Of a stretch of 64,000 bases of DNA, positions 7,257 through 55,102 are shown in pieces. A program made the translations under genes and the position numbers. The DNA comes from Schmidtea polychroa (taxonomy: Eukaryota). The stretch covers positions 234,050,001 through 234,114,000 of the forward strand of contig CM097885.1 in NCBI GenBank assembly GCA_044892525.1. The letters are read 5' to 3'. The notes beneath the pieces were generated by a model that worked only from the letters and a program-made list of their open reading frames with translations, did no database searches and was not told where the DNA came from. Each line of letters begins with the position of its first letter. Position 1 is the stretch's first letter.

Positions 7257-9687
7257 TCCCAACTTTTTTACGTGGTTTTTTACACGATTTTGAAATAACA
7301 CGGTCCACAAAAAAGGAACAAATCTTCTTTTTTTGCACGAAATATTCGGTTTAACATTATTTCCAAAAGAATATTTCTTTTTAAATTTTTATGTCAAAAT
7401 TCAAATACATATCGGGGAATACCCAAATTTTATTATATGTACATATGTAATCAAGAAACTGAATTTTATGTTTTAATTTTGTTTTTTGACAAATATTTTT
7501 TTAGAAAATTTTACTTATATAAGGAAGTTTTAATAAACTGGTAATTTCCTATAAAAATTATTATTTTTAAGTTTTACTTACATAAGGAAATTTTAATAAA
7601 CTGGTAATGTTATTTTTTTAGATTTAAAAATTTTTTATTAAGTGTTTTTATTTTAATTTTTATTATAGTCGATTAATAAGATGCCTAAACCAACGAAAAA
7701 TAATCGGAAGCGACAAGCGATTTCTTTGGAAACTAAAATAAAAATCTTAGACAGTCTTGAGAGAGGCGTAGGTCCCACATCTGTTGGCAAAGATTTTAGT
7801 TTAAGTGAAGCGACTATCAGAACCATAAAAAAGTGAGGATTTCATTCGACGATCAGTAATTTCTGGATCGAACATCAGTTCAAAAGCATCGTCATATAGC
7901 CGAAATATTATCTCGGAGAAAATGAAAAAAAGTTTATTGGTTTGGATAGAGGATTTGTTGCAGAAAAAAATACCTATAGATGGAAAAATTATAAAGGAAA
8001 AGGCCCTTAGAATATACAAACGACTTCGGGAATTGGAGCCACCAACAAGTGTCAATGCAATGAAGATAATGACATTTTATGCAAGTGAAGTATGGCTGAC
8101 AGGATTCCTAAAAAGGCAAGTATTTGATAATGTAAAAATAAAAGTAGAAGTAGCATCAGCAGATGAAAATGCTGCAAAGAGTTTTCCAGAAAAATTCATA
8201 AAAATAATTGAACACGGTGGCTATACGCCAGACCAGGTATTTAATGCCGATGAGACGGGATTATTCTGGAAAAAAATGCCCTCCAGTACCTACATTGCTA
8301 AATCAGAAAAATCTGCTGGTGGTTTCAAAGCCGCTAAGGATCGAGTAACGTTTTTATTGTGTAGTAACGCATCTGGAGATAAGATTTTAAAGCCACTGGT
8401 AATCAACAGGTCATTAATGCCACGAGCTTTGAAAAGCAAGAATATTAAACAGCTGCTAGTCCATTGGATGGCTAATAGAAAAGCATGGATGACAGGAGAA
8501 TTCTTTACAAAATGGTTCCAAGAATGCTTCGTTCCTGAAGTTCAAAAATATATGGAACAAAAGAGTCTTCAATTCAAAGTACTCTTACTCGTCGATAATG
8601 CACCCAGCCATCCTGTACTACACCATCCAAATATTGAGTTGGTATTTTTGCCGCCTAAAATCACTTCTTTGATCCAACCATTGGATCAGGGTATAATAGC
8701 AACCTTTAAAGTCTATTACATAAAACAAGCATTTAAATATATTTTGGATTCAATCGAAGACAGAAATTTGACGGTTGTCGGAGCATGGAAAAGTTATACG
8801 ATTATGGATTGTATTACACATGCTTCTTTTGCCATAAAACAACTGCGGACTTCTACCTTAAATGCTTGTTGGAAGAAAATATGGCCAGCATGTGTTAAAA
8901 TTAGTAACTCTGTAATACAAAATGCAGTTGTGTGTTCTGAAATTGTAACGCCTTCACACGAAATTTGTAGTGAGGGCTTTGAAAATATGCAAGTTGCGGA
9001 TATAGAGGAGTTGATGCTTGAAAAACCTTTAGATGATGAGGACTTGATTGAAACTATAACAGTTAATGGTATTAATGAGAACCATAGTGACGAAGACGAA
9101 GGTGAAATGCATCAACTAACTTCTGATTTAATTCGCGATGGCTTAAAATTTGGTACCAGTATGGAACAATTTTTTCTCACTCATGATCCTAACGTGGAAC
9201 GTGCATTAAAATTCCAACGGAAATTACAGGTTTGTATGTCTGGCTATCAAAAATATTATAAGGAAGTTAAAAAAGCAAAATCCCAGCAGCTTATAACAGA
9301 TTTTATCATAAGAAAACCAATATCAGATTTGATAGACCTAAGTGAGTAAAGCAATTTTAGCCAGTCTATAATAAACGTGCACGCTTATTATAAAGTAGTG
9401 ATAATAAATATTAGTTGCTAAATAGGACTTATATTTCCAATTTGAATTTAATTTATATGTATTTATGAACTAAAATTTTATTTGTTTTTTACTTATGGAC
9501 TAAAATTACTATTATTATCTATTTTTAATAAAAACATGTATGGATTATATTTTCTAAAACTTATATAATATGGTTTCAAGATTTACTATTTTTTGCACGG
9601 TTTTCTATAATTGTAATTTTACTATGGTTAACATGTCTTTTTTTACACGATTTTCGTTCGAACGTATCTAAGTGTAAAAAAAGAGTT

Positions 9688-12658: not shown

Positions 12659-13390
12659 TGTTGGGTTGTGGTCGTTGATATCGGCAACTTTGTCTGTCAG
12701 AGTAGAGCAAACTCTTCCTTTCTGTTGCCATAATCTAGTTGTCGTTCTTTTCAAATCTCAATCAAAATCATGATGAAACCAAGCTGCACCCATCATAAAT
12801 GACATTGGTTGCGTGCAATTTGGGTGAAACACGAAAATAAGGGTGAGAACCCCCTGGGTCTGCTAAATTTTTGGATTCACTGAGTCCATAGTGTTGTTGG
12901 GTTACCAACTAGGTCAACATTTCATTATCATCGACTAGGGGATGAAGGTTAATTATCATATCATCCGGAAATGAAACGCAGCACTTCTCGTTGGCCGCTA
13001 GTCAGACCCTCATGATCGTTCTTACGTCATGACACCCAAGACCTGAACCATGTTGGTGATGTGCATGGCGGTGGAGCGTAGTGGAGCAGGTGAGCCCCTG
13101 CATTAAGACTACTTCTTGACTACATTTCAACTTCTCTATTTCCCTGACGGTCGATAGGTTTTACGTCACCTGCGTTGAATTTCAGCGAAATCTATTAATT
13201 TATTCTCCTGGAAATCATCGTTATCAAAATGTCACATACTAAAATGAATAACTCCATCAACAAAACCAAAGTTATAATTAAGTACACAAGATTTAAAACT
13301 TGTCAGTGATGACTACACATAAACATGGATCTCAGACAACACACAGCGTCAAAGATGTGTTTCACAGACTAGACATGCATGATCGTGAGT
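12659..13390 (-). repeat. LTR-like repeat, family A (diverged copy)
   Basis: Shares the GCTCAC-N31/32-ACCAAC core and AACTTTGGTT(T/A)TGTT with the 19630-20444 copy. Ends in ...CCCAACA on the minus strand. Aligned by eye only. Confidence 0.55.
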
Positions 13391-13398
13391 AGGCGCAA

Positions 13399-14157
13399 TC
13401 AATCACAAAGTAGATGGAGATGTGCCAGTAAATAGTTCGTCCAAATCGAAAAAATCAGCAGCATCCTCTTTCCACGAGATGCTAGAGGGAGGCACGACTC
13501 AAAAATGGCGAGCCGGTACGGCTGGCACCGCTGCTTGTGTTTGTAGAGCTGCCTGACGATTTCTGTGATCAACCTGGCCTCTCGCTCGGTTTGTAACACT
13601 TTTCGTTTACTATTCCGCTCGGCTCGCGTCGGATGCCGGCGCTTGGAGGTTTTCTGCAGTATCGGGAGAGTGACCGATTCCGGAAGGACGACGGACCTTG
13701 GAACCGTATGATTGATGCCCGCGATGCTGACATCAGGTGTCGTGGGTGATAGAAGAGTGTCCACACAACTTGTATAAGCTTTACCCACTGATCGAATCGG
13801 ATCCAGTGGGTAGTGACGACTCGGAAAGGCATTATCCTCCTCGGCCATCGGCACATTGACGATCTTTTTTGTGATCATCGCCTGTGCGTAGACCTTGTGT
13901 AGGGCTTCGGATTGTTCCTTCACGAGCCGTCGCGAAGACCAGCTCTCATCGACGAGATTGTCACGGCAGTGCTCGACCCTTGCCAACTTCTTCCTCGTCT
14001 CTTTCATCTGCAGAGGTGCGAACCACGTTCCTTCCAGTTCATCTATCCTCTTCCTTAGCAATCCAATCTGTCCCTGCAGCGTCTTGATTATGGCATTCTT
14101 GTCTGAACAAGAATAACAAGGCTTTAAAATCGATGAGGTGGCGGGCTTTCCAGACAT
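13399..14157 (-). CDS. Unknown 252-aa protein (CxxC, coiled coil, basic patch), LTR-associated; the frame is open up to 14451
   Basis: Markedly more GC-rich than the flanks. MSGKPATSSILKPCYSCSDKNAIIKTLQGQIGLLRKRIDELE; KTSKRRHPTRAERNSKRK. A pyrimidine-rich acceptor TTTTTGTTGTTGTCATAG ends 2 nt before the ATG at 14157. Confidence 0.55.
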   Translation of the reverse strand: MSGKPATSSILKPCYSCSDKNAIIKTLQGQIGLLRKRIDELEGTWFAPLQMKETRKKLARVEHCRDNLVDESWSSRRLVKEQSEALHKVYAQAMITKKIVNVPMAEEDNAFPSRHYPLDPIRSVGKAYTSCVDTLLSPTTPDVSIAGINHTVPRSVVLPESVTLPILQKTSKRRHPTRAERNSKRKVLQTEREARLITEIVRQLYKHKQRCQPYRLAIFESCLPLASRGKRMLLIFSIWTNYLLAHLHLLCD

Positions 14158-14779
14158 TTCTATGACAACAACAAAAATATATATAGCTGAACCAGACAGA
14201 TAAACATAGGAAAAACATATAACTATAAGTAGATGGTGAAAGCTAATAATTGAGCGAGAAAGTTCCCTTACCTCGTATGTCTTGCCAGCGGTGATCACGT
14301 CCGTTTTAGTACGCATATGATGATACGGAATAAACACAAGTGAACAAGAGGAAAAGGGAAGTGAGATGAAGAACGCGTTTTCGACAGGCATCCGTTTATC
14401 GTTAGAAAGACAGGTTTCGGACGATGCTAGGGGATACGAGCACCCACTCATTACCGTGGTCGATTTAATTAGTATAACTTTTTATTATTGTCAATCGTTA
14501 ACCAAGATTGGGATGGAATTCAACTCACTCTTCAACATGCGAAATTTAACCATCAAAGACATGTCGAGACAGATGGTATCATTATTTCCAGATTACAAAC
14601 AGTAGACTCAAGCTAGTAGGAGAAAATTAACTAACTGATCTTCGATTTAAATTAAATTGAAATAAACAAAAATCAAGAACTAAGGGCAAAAATCGGAAAG
14701 TCAATTATCATTCATTGAAAAATGTGAATCCAATTTGTTAGGTAAGTTTAATATATTGTTGGGCTAGAACTGATTTCTA

Positions 14780-15435
14780 GACCCAAAGTTGGGAATGGGA
14801 CGAAATGTGTCAGTACACAACACGCATACCCAGCATTAAGTTTACTTAAATAAAAATATATAAAACACCAAGTAAACAATGATAATAGAGAGATAATATA
14901 CCCAAAAATAAAACATCTGAATTAAAAATAAAATAAAACACGAGCAAGAAGTATTACACGAAAACTTACTCAAATATAACCGAAAGACATAAAACAACAA
15001 AAAACAAATTCGAATAAAGGCGATTAGTAAAAATTAAAAAAGAAAATTAAAGAAAATCTTCATAAAATCTTACGTAAAGAAAATTATATCGATATTTTGA
15101 ATAAAAATCCAGAACAATTCATAAAAATGGCGAAATCCATCATGACGGCCAAACGACCCAATAAAATTTATAAAAAATCAATATTTTAGTTTAAAAAATA
15201 AATATTTTAGAAAAGAAATCATAAAAAACAATTTAAAAATAAGAAATAGATTGAATTTAGCATGGACTGTTCTGGAAATGCTGAAATCCATCATGGAGGC
15301 AAATTTAATAAAAAATAATTCAAAAATAAAATTTCAAAAATATAAACAAAAATTCTTACTGAAAAATCGCTATCAAAATCGATAAAAATTAAAAATCGAA
15401 TGTTCGAGAATTAAAATAATCTGAATTTGTTTTAC
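14780..15435 (+). repeat. A-rich dispersed repeat, family B
   Basis: Shares CAAGAAGTAT and CGC(T/C)ATCAAAAT(C/T)GATAAAAATTAA with 25270-25845 and 39200-39795, and AAAATGGCGAAAT(C/T)CATCATGAC with 25270-25845. Confidence 0.6.
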
Positions 15436-15663
15436 TGCATCAATGCACGCATGTATACTTACACGTCAAACAGAGGCTATATAAACTAACACATTTCGTC
15501 ACTTTTTAAGCAAGGAAAAAAAAATGCAAATGAATATTTTTACTCTTATGCCAAATTTTTGGTTTTGATTTTTCTGAGATTGTAGGTAAGGACGATTTCA
15601 TTGTGAATTATAAATTATTATTATTGAAACCTTGTTTTCATTATTTCTTTTTAACTATAGAAA

Positions 15664-16180
15664 TGTAGGTTTGAGTGAGATCGTCGGTTATCATTGATTT
15701 TGAAGCGAGATCCCAGTCAACCCTGCACCTATGCACTTCATCATCGATGAGTAAACAGCCCACAATGATCGCAGGCCACTGCCTGGCACGCACTTATCAA
15801 TATTATTGGTTTTTTTTCTGTTCAGGTCATTCGGAGGTCGCACCACTTCATGGTTCTGCCATGGAGTTAAGTCGATGAAATCCTCCGTCTGACTCTACCT
15901 ATTTATTATAGGTCAGCCGTAAAGGGTTGACTTACCACACAACAGTAAGGTTTGTCGTAGTGGTCACAGTGGGGCCGCGAAAGCAAACACTCTTCCCGAC
16001 TTTCAATGCATGAATAATTTACATAGTTAAAATCTACATCCAAAATCATCACAATACAATACACTAAGGTTAATAAACAGAGTAGATCTCAGACCTAAAT
16101 TAATCACAACTCTACAACTCACAATTAATGTAGACGGTTAAATATCATCAAGAACCAACTCTACCTATACGTTTGTCGAA
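15664..16180 (-). repeat. LTR-like repeat, family A (diverged copy)
   Basis: TCATCATCGA...GCAGGCCAC shared with 22330-22370, and GCA(C/G)CACTTC shared with 12980. TG boundary at 15664. Confidence 0.5.
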
Positions 16181-16379
16181 TCTAAATTTATAAATGTCCT
16201 AAATAAATTTTCTAGTAATAATGTAAAGTAAAGATTTTTTTCTAAATGATTGATTTAGTAGCGATAGTATTCATAAAGGTGTTCGACATGCGTATCGGCA
16301 AGACTTGGATTTTAAATTGAATAGACTCTGAACTAACTATAAAAATACAAATCGTAAACCCATAAAAGTATAAATTATC

Positions 16380-17340
16380 ATCTCAATTGCATAAAAATAT
16401 GAATTATACTTATAGATTTAATTTCTTCAAAATATAAATTATGATTAGTTATAAAGGTATAAATTACAAATTTAATTTTTCAAAAATATAAATTACAAAT
16501 TTATATTGACTGTAAAATTATAAATTATAACTCTAAGTTAATTACAAAAGTATAAATTATAATCCTAATTTCATAAAAATATAAATTATAATTAGTTATA
16601 AAAGTATAAATTATAAATTTAATTTCCTGAAAATATAAATTACAAATTTACATTGACTATAAATTATAAATTATAACTCTAAGTTAATTACAAAAGTATA
16701 AATTATAATCCTAATTTCATAAAAATATAAATTATAATTAGTTATAAAAGTATAAATTATAAATTTAAATTCCTAAAAATATAAATTACAAATTTACATT
16801 GACTATAAATTATAAATTATAACTCTAAGTTGATTGTAAAAGTATAAATTATAATCTTAATTTCTTCAAAATATAAATCATGATCTTAAAAGTATAAATT
16901 ATAAAATTATATTAGCTACAAAATATAAACTATAAATTTACCTTAACTTCATAAAAATATAAATCATAAACTTAAAAATATAACTTATAAAATTATATTA
17001 GCTTTAGAAATATAAACTATAAATTGAACTTCACCAAATATAAATTATACACTTAAAAAAAAAATAAATTATAAAATTATATTAGCTTTAAAATATAAAC
17101 CATAAAATTAGCTTCATAAAAATATAAATTATAAACTTAAAAATAAAAATTATAAAATTATATTAGCTTTGGGAATATAAACTATAAATTGAACTTCACC
17201 AAATATAAATTATAAACTTAAAAGTATAAATTATAAAATTATATCAGTTCTAAAATATAAACTATAAATTTAACTTCATAAAAATATAAATTATAAAATT
17301 ATATTAGCTTTAAAATATAAACTATAAATTTAACTTAACT
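16380..17340. repeat. AT-rich minisatellite with a 146-bp higher-order unit followed by ~80-bp units
   Basis: CTCTAAG recurs at 16531, 16677 and 16823, and AATC(C/T)TAATTT at 16561, 16707 and 16853. Subunit core AATATAAATTATA. Confidence 0.9.
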
Positions 17341-17669
17341 TAGATTGGCTTTAACATCATAGTTGAAAATTTTTCATCAAAGACCCCCCATAAACCATAT
17401 AGTCATCAACTACCACCTAAATATACTAAATTAGCTTATCTTAATATATATTTAACTTATATTATATTTTAAAATATAAATTGAAAATTTTCATAAATGA
17501 CCCCCCTTCAAATTATGTAGCCATTAACTATTCCTTAGGTATACTGAATTGTATCATCTTCGTATAGAGTCAAATTATATTTCAAACCAAAAAAAAAAAA
17601 TAATAATTCCATAAATTTTCGTAAATGATCCCCCCATATGTAGTAATCTTATAAAAATATAAATTTACA

Positions 17670-17712
17670 TTTATTATTATTATTATTATCGTTATTATTA
17701 TTATTATTATTA

Positions 17713-17754
<42 letters not shown>

Positions 17755-17823
17755 GCATTGTTACCAGTAACATTATCACTCTTACTATTATTATTACTAT
17801 TATCATTATTATTATTATATTAT
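17670..17823. repeat. (ATT)n microsatellite
   Basis: Direct reading. It explains the poly-Ile ORF 17582-17806. Confidence 0.95.
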
Positions 17824-18273
17824 TAAAATAATTATCTTTATTTCATAAAAATAAAATTATAAAACAAATTATTGATTTTGGGATTCCCCTATCTCTAAAT
17901 TTAGTTTCAATGGCCCTATCTTCCAATAAAATTACGGAAAATCACTAAAATCTATTTTTAGTAACACCCCCCCCCTGAAAACGACATCAATATTATTAAT
18001 TTAAATTATATCCATATATGTATATATGTGTGGGTGTATATGTATGTGTATATATAAGTGGATGTGTGTATGTACATACCGATTTATAAAACAACCTTAT
18101 AACAATACGATAACCTTCCCCCTCAAGACCCCTGTTATGTGATGGTCACAACCCCTTTAAGGTGATGGAACGAGGATAGAGTAGTTTACTGAAGTAATTT
18201 AGTAGAATCATTTATTAAAATTATTGGATTTATTTTTAACTAAATCAAAGAGACTAAATTTATTTTTAACTAG

Positions 18274-18483
18274 ATCAAAAGAAAAAGAAAAACAAAGACT
18301 AAGTTTATTGATTTCGATCATCAAATTTATTCACATAATTGTTTCTTTGAATCATATTCATACCAAAAAGTCCTTCAAGCTCAGTTGATGGACCATCCCG
18401 ATGAAATACATTTCCTGGGGTTGGAAAATGGAAAACTTATATTAAAATATCTTTCAGAATTTCTTTTAGATTTCCACAATTAA
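18274..18483 (+). other. Possible terminal coding exon of an unidentified plus-strand gene
   Basis: Acceptor TTTTAACTAG followed by 69 open codons (IKRKRKTKTKFIDFDHQIYSHNCFFESYSYQKVLQAQLMDHPDEIHFLGLENGKL...) to TAA. No upstream exon identified. Confidence 0.25.
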
Positions 18484-18545
18484 ATAATTCCAAATTATTT
18501 CTCACAAATATATTCGATCAAAAAGAATTTTAATATTTTATTTAA

Positions 18546-19214
18546 TTACAACATCCTGAATTTATTTCTTTGCTTGGCTGCTTTAAGATCATAAATGGGC
18601 ATTTTTCATTTATTAATCGGATAAAATCAGTTTTTCTGTACAACCTTTACATTCTTCACCCCAGCTTTCTAATATTTTTTGAGATCTTTAACGCGAGCTT
18701 TGTTTAGATTAATACCAGTAAGATCAATAGGTTTGTCTGAAAAATAGTTGAATTAATATTTAAAATCTTAACTGAACATACCATATTTTAATTCACAAAT
18801 TTGTGCATCAATTGCTTTTAGTTTTTCAGACTTTTTCAGCGGGCATAACCCAACTCAAAGGCTGAGACAAATGTTTTACAATATATGCAGTAGATGTTAC
18901 CAATCCTCCAATATAATAACACTAAAAATAAATTACAATTTTATAGTAATCAGTTATAATACCTTACCAGACTTTATTCTTTTCCTTTACTTGTTTTGCT
19001 CATCTTTTTGAATTTATTTTCAATATTTTCGATATTTGTACTTTCATCTCCATCTAGACTATCTTTCAGGCGTCTCACAAACTTAACACAAACTGAACAA
19101 TTTTTAAATATAATAAAAATAAGTGCCAAATACCTTCGCAATTATTTTCATTAACCGTAGCTGACATTACATAGTAAACAATGATTAGAAAAGAAAAACT
19201 GATAAAATTTTCAT
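18546..19214 (-). pseudogene. MANF: MANF/ARMET neurotrophic factor gene, 4 exons, frameshifted (pseudogene or consensus error)
   Basis: Exons 19214-19134, 19092-18968, 18921-18782 and 18736-18546 with 41-46 nt GT-AG introns. Repaired translation: signal peptide [83 protein letters not shown]. Confidence 0.9.
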
Positions 19215-19620
19215 TGCAAAATATTACTAATATAAAAAAATGGTTTGTTAAAAAAAAAATAATTAGTTAAAACAAGTTTAAAATACTTCAAACTGACGTA
19301 TAAGTTTTGTTTAAAATGTAAGTAACGAGTATTGTAAAATTAATTTAATATTATTATAAATTTTGAATTAAAATTTTCTTAAAATTCTAGAAAAAAAATC
19401 TATTATTAATAGAAAACAAATTTTTAAAAATAAATAAAGTTTGAGTCAATTTGAATTTTCTAGAAGTATCTCTTAAAATTATATAGGGAATTGTTTTGTA
19501 ACAGTTATTGATGTATTTTGAATTTATTTAACTTGAATTAAAAATATAATATTAACAAAAATGTATTGTGAGATTTTGATTGTTGATCTAACCATCTCTC
19601 TATAACTACCCGGGCTCAAC

Positions 19621-20444
19621 AAAGGGGAGTGTCATTGTAGGTCAACTAGGACAGTCATAGTCACCGCGAAATACGCTTAGTCAAATAATACGCGGTCATA
19701 AACAATCATGGTTCTTGTAAAGTTATTATATTTTGTTGTTGTGGTTGATGAAATTTCTGACCCTTATTTGTATGTTCACTAATATATAAGTTGTTTGTTT
19801 TTTGATTATTTTCTAATTAAATTCATTATTCCCAAAAATTTCTTAAGGTATGTTTAATAAACTTTGGTTATGTTTCACTTAATTTATACTCAAACATGTT
19901 AGATGGGGTATTGTATGAACAGGTTTTAATAGATTAATGTATGATTCCTGATGACTTATGATCGGTTGAGGATAGAAAGTTTGTATAGGCATAGTTGAGA
20001 AAGTAATTATAATAAGGGACCTGCGTAAATCGGACATACATCTTCTAACGATAGTCCGTGAACCCATTAGAGTGCTCGACAATTACAGTGCAAGTAGTGC
20101 GCTCACTTTTTGCGAGTACTCACCCTCTTGATACAGTACCAACGTTGATCACTCAACGGGTATCAAGCGGTAAACAATGTTGTATCTTGGGTTACGCTGG
20201 TAACAGCACTAAAGAGCAAAATATTTGATCATCAGTAACCCACCAATATTTTATCAACTGATTTAGACCCCTTCTAATTACAAATCTAGATATGAGTTTA
20301 CACTGTTGGTCTAATGGTGGTCTCATTAGCATGTCTGCACGTGTCGATTTTTCATGGATAAGACAGTATCTAGTGGCTGTGGATTTAACAATCATTTCAC
20401 TTGTGATCGTCTTATGGCTATATTGATTTGTGACTCGTGCAACA
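19621..20444 (+). mobile_element. Polypurine tract plus ~815-bp LTR, family A (best-delimited copy)
   Basis: AAAGGGGAG (19621-19629) is immediately followed by TGTCAT, and the copy ends ...GCAACA at 20444. AATAAA inside. Conserved core ACCAACGTTGATCACTCAAC at 20138. Confidence 0.65.
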
Positions 20445-20879
20445 CTGATAATTGTATTTTATTATCGCTCATTGGTTTAGCGGATGTTATTATTCCGATT
20501 AATATGAGGTGATTATCAGTGTGGTTTATGATTTTTAGATGTGTGTTGTGAATAGCCCGTGTGTTGTTTCAAATTCGGTATTGAGCTCCGATTCTTATCT
20601 GTTGCTATTCTTCCATTAGCATGGAAAATTTCTTATTGGAACAATATCTAAACGCTATCTAATGAGAAGTGAAATGCGGTAAATTACAGAAAATCACGTC
20701 GAATTGTCTTTATTGGGGCTTATTCTCTTAGATCTCAGCACTTAAGTTCCATGTTGGAGAAAGAAGTTCAAATTCTCATGAGTGATAAATTGCTTACCCT
20801 GATATTTGACTAATGTTTGGGTCTGTTTATTACTTATACCAATTTTGTGGGTAGATTTATTGTTCCTATTCAATTTCCA

Positions 20880-21230
20880 CGCGATTGAACGTCGAAAAAC
20901 AAATTTCTGCTACACCGATATTCACCCTAGCTGACGAAAGGTAGAATTCACAGATTTATTTACGATCTGAAGAAAATAAAATCCAGTTCTCGAAGATGGA
21001 AAGAAACCGAGTACGGACTTCCTTAGTCATTACGAGACTTCCTCTAAGCAGTGCAATCCAGCTACTATCGCATCGAATGTTGAAAATTACCTGGCGGCGA
21101 CAGATCAGGGGGAAACCCCCACGATGACCCGATCGATTCCGCCGCGATTCTGAAACACCAATCGACTTACTCGCAAGAGGAACAACGAATGTCCCTCAAG
21201 CTGTGGCCTTTCAGGTGCCAGTTTCGCGAA
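20880..21230 (+). mobile_element. Decayed coding remnant homologous to ORF 34822-35295
   Basis: CGCGAT..ACCGATATT..CCC and GAAGATGGAAAG (20992 vs 34942) are shared. Translations EDGK..ETSS...AT vs EDGK..ETSP...AT. Confidence 0.4.
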
Positions 21231-22275
21231 ATGTTTTCAAAATATATCATAACATTAATTCAATTTTGTATTCATTTATAATTTCCTTCTTGAACAAAAA
21301 CATAATCATCATTTTCATTAAATATCTAATAAATAATTAATTACGAATCAAAAGAGAAAACTGAAAACTGTTTTAAGTTTTAATTTTTAAAATACGTTAC
21401 ATTCATGATTACGTTTAAATATCATAATATACATAACAAATTAAAAGATTAACTGTCTAATAAAATTTCCTTTCAAAACGATAATAGTCCGTTAAATCAA
21501 CTTTCTTTCAAACTCTAGTTTATGATTTGGGATCTTCGAGTGATTTGTCTGTCGCGCAAAATGACCTAAAGTTATTATAAGTTAATATTTTTACATTATA
21601 CCTAGTGTGACTTACCTAAAGTTATTTTAAAATAACATTGAAATTTTCATTTCAATGCGGTGCTTATATAGTTTATTGTAAAATGTGTGGGACAATCAAA
21701 ATTGAGACACCGTTAAATTATTTAATTTAATTAAAATTTATATATTTTATTGATTTTTTTTGGTTTTTTTGGTTTTTCTTTAAATTATATTAATTTTCTA
21801 AATCTTTTCTATTAACTGTATGTATTTGGTGTTATTTTTTCCACTTTTATCGGCTTTTAATACTTTGATTTTTGTTTTAACTCTATGTTTTATTTATTTT
21901 TCTATGTTTTATTTATTTAGTTAATGTACTTATTTTGTATTTGAGTTATTTTTGATTTTGGGTATTTTTTGTTGTTACCTTTTCCTCCCTTTATTTGCTT
22001 ACTCTATTTCCTCTTTGGTTTTTGGTCTTACCTCTCAGCTCAACAGTGTCTATAGAAGACACAAACTCTTTCCTCTCAAGGTATGTCCCATCAGAACTCA
22101 GTCAGGTAGACATTTATTTAATGGTGAAACTCCAATCCAACCACATAGAATTCAAACGTAAAAATTATATAATACAGGGAATAAAGTTATCGAGACGAAA
22201 ATACAAGTCGCACTATGTTTGTCAAAATAAAATATTAGGTCACTAGACAAACACAAAGGTTAATTTTTAGAATGA

Positions 22276-25269: not shown

Positions 25270-25845
25270 TCTTCAATAAAAAGTCCAAACATCAATTAAA
25301 CAACTAAATAAAATCCACTCAACACAAAAATGAACTAAAATGAAACAAAAGCAAGAAGTATTACATGAAATCCAATGAAACACCATATAGATACATAACA
25401 GAAGTATGCAAATTTGAATTATTGGCAATAAGAAGAGATATGAATTGAAATTAGAAAGATTTCCAAAAAAATAACATCAGAAAATGAAGAAGCGATAAAA
25501 GATTTTACAATAGAAATGAACAGAAAATTAAAATATTCTATAAAAATGGCGAAATTCATCATGACCGCCTAGTAGCTAGTGGAAATTGACTAAAAGAAAA
25601 ATTTTTAAGAATTAAATAAGCAAAAAACTATTCTGAGAAAAACATAAGAATTAAAAGTAAAAGGAATTATTTAATAAAATCTTTGAAATTACATAAAATA
25701 TTCTAGAAAACGTCCATATCCATTATGGAGGCAAAATTAGTTAAAAATAAATAAAATAAAAACATTAGAAAACAAAAAATTAATAAATTGCGAAAAAATC
25801 GCCATCAAAATTGATAAAAATTAAGATTAAAATTAATTGGAATAT
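25270..25845 (+). repeat. A-rich dispersed repeat, family B
   Basis: Motifs shared with 14780-15435. Followed by (TA)n at 25855-25927. Confidence 0.6.
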
Positions 25846-35329: not shown

Positions 35330-35480
35330 TATATAATAATAAACTTATATGTAGTTAATGCTCGTGACACATTACCAACGTTGATCACTCAACAAGTGTC
35401 GAATGGTTAAACCATTCATTGTATTTTGGGTTGCGTCGGAAACGACGCGAACGGGTAGAATATAGATTACCTGAGACCAA
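35330..35480 (+). repeat. LTR family A fragment
   Basis: ACCAACGTTGATCACTCAAC at 35374 is identical to 20138, followed by TGTATTTTGGGTTGCG (compare TGTATCTTGGGTTACG). Confidence 0.6.

Positions 35481-36034: not shown

Positions 36035-55102
<19,068 letters not shown>

Follow-up and report, generated by a model that had tools for sequence, protein, structure and literature searches.

A gene inside the long terminal repeats of Burro-type giant Gypsy elements in Schmidtea polychroa, possibly encoding a Rev/Rex-like regulator of element RNA

We analysed a 64,000-nucleotide stretch of the Schmidtea polychroa genome (the window: assembly GCA_044892525.1, contig CM097885.1, positions 234,050,001 to 234,114,000 of the forward strand), in which an open reading frame (ORF) at 14157-13399 on the minus strand encodes 252 amino acids. 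This ORF is a broken copy of a gene that is carried inside the long terminal repeats (LTRs) of giant Gypsy elements of the Burro type, downstream of a predicted LTR promoter. The product is likely a small nuclear protein translated from a spliced RNA, and we tentatively suggest, with a little less than even confidence, that it is a Rev/Rex-like regulator of element RNA. The Burro element family is already published and the LTR-encoded gene is an added feature. An earlier interpretation made from the letters of the window alone (the sequence-only reading) had proposed an intact accessory or domesticated gene between two old LTR-like repeats. The window copy itself is a dead, decayed remnant of no special interest; the feature of the family is real and testable.

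Much of what the sequence-only reading described in the ORF was found again. The 252-residue frame has a PCYSC motif, a zipper-like run, a Pro/Ser/Thr linker and a basic patch; GC content rises to 0.44-0.58 per 100 nt across 13301-14100, against about 0.28 window-wide; and a pyrimidine tract and AG end 2 nt before the ATG at 14157. The ORF matches no Pfam family, in line with the reported lack of gag- or reverse transcriptase-type domains. From stop to stop the frame spans 360 codons (14481-13399, minus strand). The roughly 100 open codons 5′ of the ATG are not conserved, and open-frame lengths vary widely among paralogues. The claim that the ORF is intact does not hold. Alignment to the nearest relative places a 1-nt gap after ORF base 602 (near 13555, about codon 201); the copy is in the family frame up to that codon and its last ~50 residues are off-frame, with the conserved tail lost. 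The family frame that carries this tail also holds a stop at about 13501 in the window copy, and the family-like length of the window ORF despite the frameshift is due to chance. With this frameshift the copy can be called neither intact nor domesticated, and the proposed selection on this insertion is refuted; selection acted on the gene within active elements.

The ORF lies within a single old solo LTR of a Burro-type Gypsy element (12895-22045, minus strand) and so is neither internal cargo between two diverged LTRs nor in the position of an envelope (env) gene. The LTR has an ACAC target-site duplication on both sides (22046-22049 and 12891-12894) and no internal region. It measures about 3.66 kb once a nested insertion is subtracted, starts with TGTTGAGCT and finishes with CCCAACA, and its blocks match paralogous LTRs in the same order. 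The ORF ends about 500 nt short of the LTR 3′ end, which is formed by 13390-12895, including a weakly conserved AATAAA at 13204 and a conserved 3′ LTR block (12895-13204, minus strand). The adjoining 12894-12659 is flanking DNA, and 47 other matches show nothing that corresponds to it. The two repeats that had been drawn as an LTR pair around the ORF are unrelated by alignment (local score 24, versus 21.0 +/- 2.4 for shuffles, with 70 of 500 shuffles as high), and the pair was rejected. Its upstream member, 15664-16180, is an inner part of a younger solo LTR of 5,489 bp (14757-20245, plus strand, ATAT duplication) that splits the old LTR in the opposite orientation and belongs to a gag-only, Burro-like family; locus L065 has the empty insertion site. 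At least 40 places in the genome match the stretch 15600-16340 at 97-100%, many of them paired about 16 kb apart. The full-length form of this family has gag domains between its LTRs. No reverse transcriptase was found between the paired LTRs, and a profile search found no homologue of the ORF in the younger LTR.

We searched 781 Mb of the same genome for paralogues, whose counts are lower bounds. The window protein has at least 151 matches (150 scored of 5430 first-look candidates), and a diverged family member has at least 148 further matches (148 scored of 6892 candidates). There are many diverged subfamilies at 40-60% identity, and 21 of the 30 best matches to the window protein contain internal stops. 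The paralogues are linked to LTRs: ORF copies sit inside TGTTGGGCT...CA units with 4-bp duplications, young ones in TG...CA units of 3.4-4.1 kb, and the LTRs of the family measure 3.4-4.3 kb. We also inspected 60 further loci, hand-picked from the best-match list and related to one another. The LTR 3′ block follows the ORF in 49 of these; a hairpin block is present in 38, a promoter block in 35 and the LTR 5′ end in 28. Both LTR ends and the duplication were found at 14 loci, and none of the LTR features at four.

The gene is also present in young elements. Among the 148 listed matches, 42 form 21 same-strand ORF pairs that are 26.1-26.7 kb apart. In eight of nine pairs examined, LTRs of 4.17-4.20 kb align whole at 99.9-100% (the ninth aligned in pieces), a primer-binding site (PBS) follows the 5′ LTR, and the 254-residue frame is intact. 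These elements of about 30 kb carry the gene in both LTRs, not between pol and the 3′ LTR where env and 3′ accessory genes lie. The PBS sequence is complementary to the 3′ terminus of the tRNA-Pro(TGG) encoded in this genome; this 3′ pattern has 1,555 exact matches genome-wide. This primer tRNA is encoded in a tandem array with a 475-bp unit (locus L214, G000:C1 near 130.9 Mb). Elsewhere in the genome, an LTR end 86% like that of the window is followed by the same PBS and the same RING gene as in these elements. Since the PBS follows the LTR on the ORF strand, we rejected the reading of the ORF as an antisense gene upstream of gag. That arrangement, suggested by locus L068, is a chance adjacency, with no fixed link to gag-pol at 20 further loci.

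Element interiors encode, by Pfam, a gag with CCHC knuckles, a viral fusion protein, protease, reverse transcriptase, RNase H and integrase, ankyrins, and RING and MATH genes (loci L101-L106, L113 and L186-L188). The domain order (gag, fusion protein, protease to integrase, then ankyrin and MATH/BIR cargo) is that of Burro, and the distance between the paired ORFs plus a 4.2-kb LTR gives a total length above 30 kb. On layout and length, we assign the ORF family to the LTRs of Burro-type giant Gypsy elements; the paired repeats around PBS and gag-pol were seen for related subfamilies, not for the window's own LTR. Three to four more unnamed ORFs (165-370 amino acids), conserved between elements, lie between a TRAF-like gene and the 3′ LTR (L113, L107, L188). 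At L102:2531-3917, a 3′ LTR is present without its first 2.5 kb, and the LTR ORF follows directly after the pol-ankyrin frame.

Paralogues were tested for the ratio of replacing to silent substitution rates (dN/dS), using 12 representatives (66 pairs) of 26 copies chosen for their open frames. They show purifying selection and not neutral evolution. Ten pairs were measurable between subfamilies, with dN/dS of 0.07-0.25, and the other 56 were saturated at silent sites; within young subfamilies the ratio is 0.10-0.52. Fixed differences are 37 silent to 16 replacing and 57 to 26, compared to a neutral expectation of 1:3.1. The family conserves the first 110 residues, the basic patch and an acidic-aromatic tail but not the linkers; the proportion of replacement sites that differ (pN) is 0.28 in the tail and 0.52-0.63 in linkers. 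With LTR-linked paralogues, these ratios uphold the earlier suggestion of a retroelement accessory gene under selection.

We place the predicted transcription start upstream of the ORF, some 390 nt into the LTR. The window LTR has a TATA box (from 21670) and an initiator, with the putative start at 21639 (21639-21670, minus strand). The same spacing, ~360-390 nt into the LTR, occurs in 38 of 57 paralogous promoter blocks; 27 of those 38 have a donor-like site at about +25. None of 86 loci has a TATA and initiator promoter after the ORF. As the start site, read from DNA signals, lies upstream of the ORF, the gene would be in R or U5 and not, as a U3 gene would be, upstream of the start.

In the window LTR a 24-nt first exon is followed by an AG/GTAAGT donor at 21615 and a GT..AG stretch of 50 nt; the 3′ half of this stretch is a repeat of the exon, with 20 of 24 nt alike in this old copy (21566-21639, minus strand). 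A repeat of the first ~25 nt is found about 50 nt downstream in 31 of 50 anchored promoters (19 were scored single, four of them mis-anchored or disrupted, and seven more were not anchored), and 29 of the 31 two-copy LTRs enclose a GT..AG of 42-58 nt. The two leader copies are 98% alike within an LTR and 53% alike between LTRs. A G precedes the second copy in 11 of 27 and the first in one of 27, a mis-anchored row. Among nine young elements, a private change is in both copies in two and in only the second copy in one, and a G precedes the second copy in five. Such covariation within an element, often with a G before the second copy, is as expected from rewriting off a capped spliced RNA. The simplest reading is that the second leader copy is rewritten in each reverse-transcription cycle from capped, spliced RNA. 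The repeated leader with its GT..AG stretch was seen in the window (21639-21566, minus strand) and at loci L140-L173, L082-L097 and L186-L205.

A likely splice acceptor, the pyrimidine tract and AG at 14160-14180 (minus strand), ends 2 nt before the ATG and is conserved in paralogues, which supports the earlier proposal that the gene has an acceptor of its own. Of the 71 loci with an ATG, 70 have a YAG no more than 15 nt from it (32% background) and 51 have one 1-3 nt before it (8% background); these loci are related, so they are not independent trials. The same AG could instead serve trans-splicing. Contigs from a run presumed to be RNA cover the ORF of locus L082 (242 contigs, 16 at 99% or more), and a run of unknown kind gave the same profile. 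The contig matches listed include no donor-to-acceptor joint and no spliced leader, and no processed intron-less copy joining the +25 donor to the ORF was recognised at 86 loci.

Between promoter and gene, about 400-600 nt after the start site, there is a conserved GC-rich block of predicted structured RNA (21086-21205, minus strand; fold -46.9 kcal/mol) with a covarying terminal hairpin (21147-21097). The block folds with a median z of -2.0 across paralogues. A covariation alignment was made from 47 of 57 anchored stretches (42 distinct rows). Across the distinct rows the terminal hairpin is paired in 96% of cells, with 18 cells changed on both sides, a number reached by none of 500 shuffles, and no slid register was seen near it. 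The block has no match in Rfam. Between subfamilies, a long hairpin closed by a UUCG loop remains paired although its stem letters are almost wholly swapped (L082:5231-5300, L087, L171, L172).

The protein is predicted to be a dimeric coiled coil that has a CxxC motif, a helix rich in arginine and an acidic-aromatic tail. In the model of an intact natural copy, helices span residues 17-42, 48-100, 178-206 and 239-244 and are joined by disordered linkers (mean predicted local distance difference test score, pLDDT, 65). Residues 171-200, which overlap the third helix, include 11 lysines or arginines. For residues 8-118 the prediction is a parallel dimer whose interface includes C14 and C17 (score 0.55, against 0.00 for the best control); the dimer runs agree in at least 76% of contacts, with pLDDT of 75 or more. 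The mark used for dimers was reached by 21 of 30 solved pairs and none of 23 single chains from microbes, and by 17 of 29 and none of 30 from eukaryotes. An arginine-rich helix together with this predicted oligomerisation region is the arrangement of Rev, Rex and CERV.

Outside this genome we found no homologue among 233, 3961 and 7994 scored candidates (the last being weak evidence) or among 1.84 billion representatives, in libraries that are poor in flatworm repeat proteins. The Atlas returned only matches under 0.9, with delta antigen at 0.79, the level of chance. Pfam profile searches gave generic coiled coils, with no ORF1, RRM or gag match; nothing was below E 0.014 among solved-structure sequences or at E <= 0.001 in fold searches with the pLDDT 65 model. 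The ORF lacks the ORF1 or gag domains, followed by pol or ORF2, of a long interspersed nuclear element (LINE) ORF1 or a gag gene. No host or foreign donor gene was found in the sequence searches, contrary to the idea of a captured foreign gene.

We propose a Rev-like role as the leading inference, in which RNA binding and expression are predicted. Capped genomic RNA would start at the LTR initiator, about 390 nt into the LTR. The +25 donor may splice across the 50-nt stretch to give genomic RNA, and strand transfer would then land on the second leader copy; alternatively, it may splice ~2 kb to the acceptor before the ATG to give the mRNA of the regulator. The protein would act as a parallel coiled-coil dimer with CxxC pairs at its interface, its arginine-rich helix binding the hairpin block and its acidic-aromatic tail recruiting a host export or processing factor. 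The long, largely unspliced RNA would in this way escape splicing or early polyadenylation and leave the nucleus. A 30-kb RNA that has a strong +25 donor and many genes downstream must have some means of retaining and exporting its unspliced form, and a predicted dimer, an arginine-rich helix, a conserved tail and structured RNA in the same LTR fit a Rev/Rex-like switch.

Several observations weigh against this proposal. The acidic-aromatic tail fits a transcription activation motif as well as it fits an export signal. No likeness in sequence or fold to Rev, Rex or any family was found in the libraries searched. Only 29 of 60 hairpin blocks fold with z below -2, and two-sided changes occur in four of 13 pairs, a number reached by 29 of 500 shuffles. 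Of the candidate signals for the R/U5 border, an AATAAA occurs in the 300 nt past the stop at just 47 of 86 loci and at +30 to +330 at 23 of 40, and a column 5′ of the hairpin that is conserved in part gives no more than a hint. The younger nested family spreads although its LTR lacks this ORF, but as a non-autonomous family it could borrow one. The loci were picked from best-match lists and are related, and the dN/dS set was selected for open frames.

The product of the same LTR-encoded gene could be a transcriptional activator (Tat/Tas-like or similar to a basic leucine zipper, bZIP) that raises initiation or elongation at the LTR promoter; we regard this as possible but doubtful. The predicted dimeric coiled coil, the basic helix and the acidic-aromatic tail, which is among the most conserved parts, would suit an activator, and the promoter-proximal hairpin block could be a target like the trans-activation response element (TAR). 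However, the basic helix follows the coiled coil after about 80 residues, whereas in bZIP it comes immediately before; a distance of ~400-600 nt between start site and hairpin is far for a TAR-like element; and the strong +25 donor poses a splicing problem of the kind that Rev-like proteins solve. It is unlikely that the protein instead counters host silencing or modulates host cells, like the TRAF, BIR and RING cargo, and that it lacks an RNA target within the LTR. Many genes that modulate the host are carried by Burro elements (PMC6431247), and the many subfamilies at 40-60% identity would be consistent with such a role, but the protein has no host-like domain and its core evolves slowly under purifying selection, not rapidly.

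A nucleic-acid chaperone or particle cofactor (LINE ORF1-like) that aids copying, transfer or packaging of ~3.5 kb of R/U5 is likewise improbable. The N-terminal CxxC with coiled coil and the basic helix are consistent with one, and the promoter position implies a multi-kilobase strong-stop DNA; against this, there is no ORF1, RRM or gag match and the elements already encode a gag with CCHC knuckles. By far the least probable is the version of the sequence-only reading, an intact, selected or domesticated cargo between two old LTRs. A long open frame, the acceptor and the GC rise had favoured it, but the repeats are unrelated, the ORF sits in a single LTR flanked by a target duplication, a frameshift has cost the copy its conserved tail, and internal stops are common among the best matches. 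It would stand only if the frameshift were an assembly error.

Rev/Rex and Tat/Tas are small spliced regulators with an arginine-rich helix and a structured RNA nearby. Genes in LTRs are known from mouse mammary tumour virus (sag) and human immunodeficiency virus (nef), where they are U3 genes expressed from the 3′ LTR. The gene described here is likewise in an LTR but is downstream of the predicted LTR start site, and therefore a lone LTR could read it. CERV, a precedent for the function of the LTR-gene product by analogy, is an accessory protein of the Caenorhabditis elegans Cer1 element, made from a spliced mRNA and needed to export unspliced RNA (PMC10309623). By that description it is, like our protein, a Gypsy-family accessory protein, and it multimerises through coiled coils and cysteines; unlike ours, it is large and three-domain, in an element with LTRs of ~490 bp (PMC10309623), while the protein here has 250 amino acids, lies wholly within a 4-kb LTR and has a predicted function. 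Cer1 is reported to be sister to a flatworm env-bearing element (PMC13524379). Plant Retand and Grande elements have conserved additional ORFs of undefined function, proposed as nuclear regulators; they are internal and mostly antisense between pol and the 3′ LTR, whereas ours is sense and inside the LTR (PMC11963269, PMC7264820).

Burro/GYPSM1 elements are giant Gypsy-like LTR elements of planarians for which accessory ORFs upstream have been described (PMC6431247). As in that description, the elements here exceed 30 kb with LTRs, have a CCHC-knuckle gag and a fusion protein between gag and pol, and carry ankyrins and MATH/TRAF, BIR/RING and SUMO-like domains (PMC6431247). They differ in having a gene, an intron and a hairpin in the LTR, none of which is named in the covered text of that paper (PMC6431247). 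The literature searched, in the parts covered (PMC6431247, PMC11410931, PMC8532177, PMC11963269, PMC7264820, PMC13238120 and bioRxiv 10.64898/2025.12.11.693146), mentions neither a gene encoded in the LTR nor an LTR intron for Burro; the founding paper (Grohme 2018), with its extended data and supplements, was outside the search and may show the ORF.

Solo LTRs are usually taken as non-coding remnants, and here a selected protein gene lies downstream of a predicted LTR promoter, so remnants of one of the genome's largest repeat families may be protein-coding units. It is conceivable, although we hold it less firmly than the Rev-like role, that every LTR of these elements is a complete spliced gene, with a promoter, a first intron rebuilt in each round of reverse transcription, a structured response element and a Rev/Tat-like coding sequence. 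Solo LTRs, in their thousands, could then provide the regulator in trans or titrate it, and thereby determine how active the whole family is. If an RNA-export or transcription switch is confirmed, it would offer a single knock-down target for control of a 30-kb RNA in giant env-bearing elements. The question could be addressed in planarian stem and somatic cells, and retrovirus-style regulation would be extended beyond Cer1.

The window contains other features. The younger gag-only family (14757-20245; L061-L063) is very young and non-autonomous, with LTRs of 5.3-5.5 kb about 16 kb apart that contain tandem AT-rich arrays and have neither the ORF nor a repeated leader. Older pieces related to it, 67-87% alike over short stretches, occur at 25333-25824, 35361-35443 and 39488-40313. 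A Tc5/pogo-type DDE transposase is encoded at 7829-9349 (plus strand), a protein kinase domain at 28643-27594 (minus) and a hAT fragment at 32662-32264 (minus), all by Pfam. A 463-codon frame at 63958-62567 (minus) has no match in Pfam or among solved-structure sequences. About 590 nt downstream of the old LTR end and on the same strand, a 273-codon frame (12309-11488, minus) matches the N-terminal part of XPF/ERCC4 (E 3e-67) and may be a gene exon or a pseudogene.

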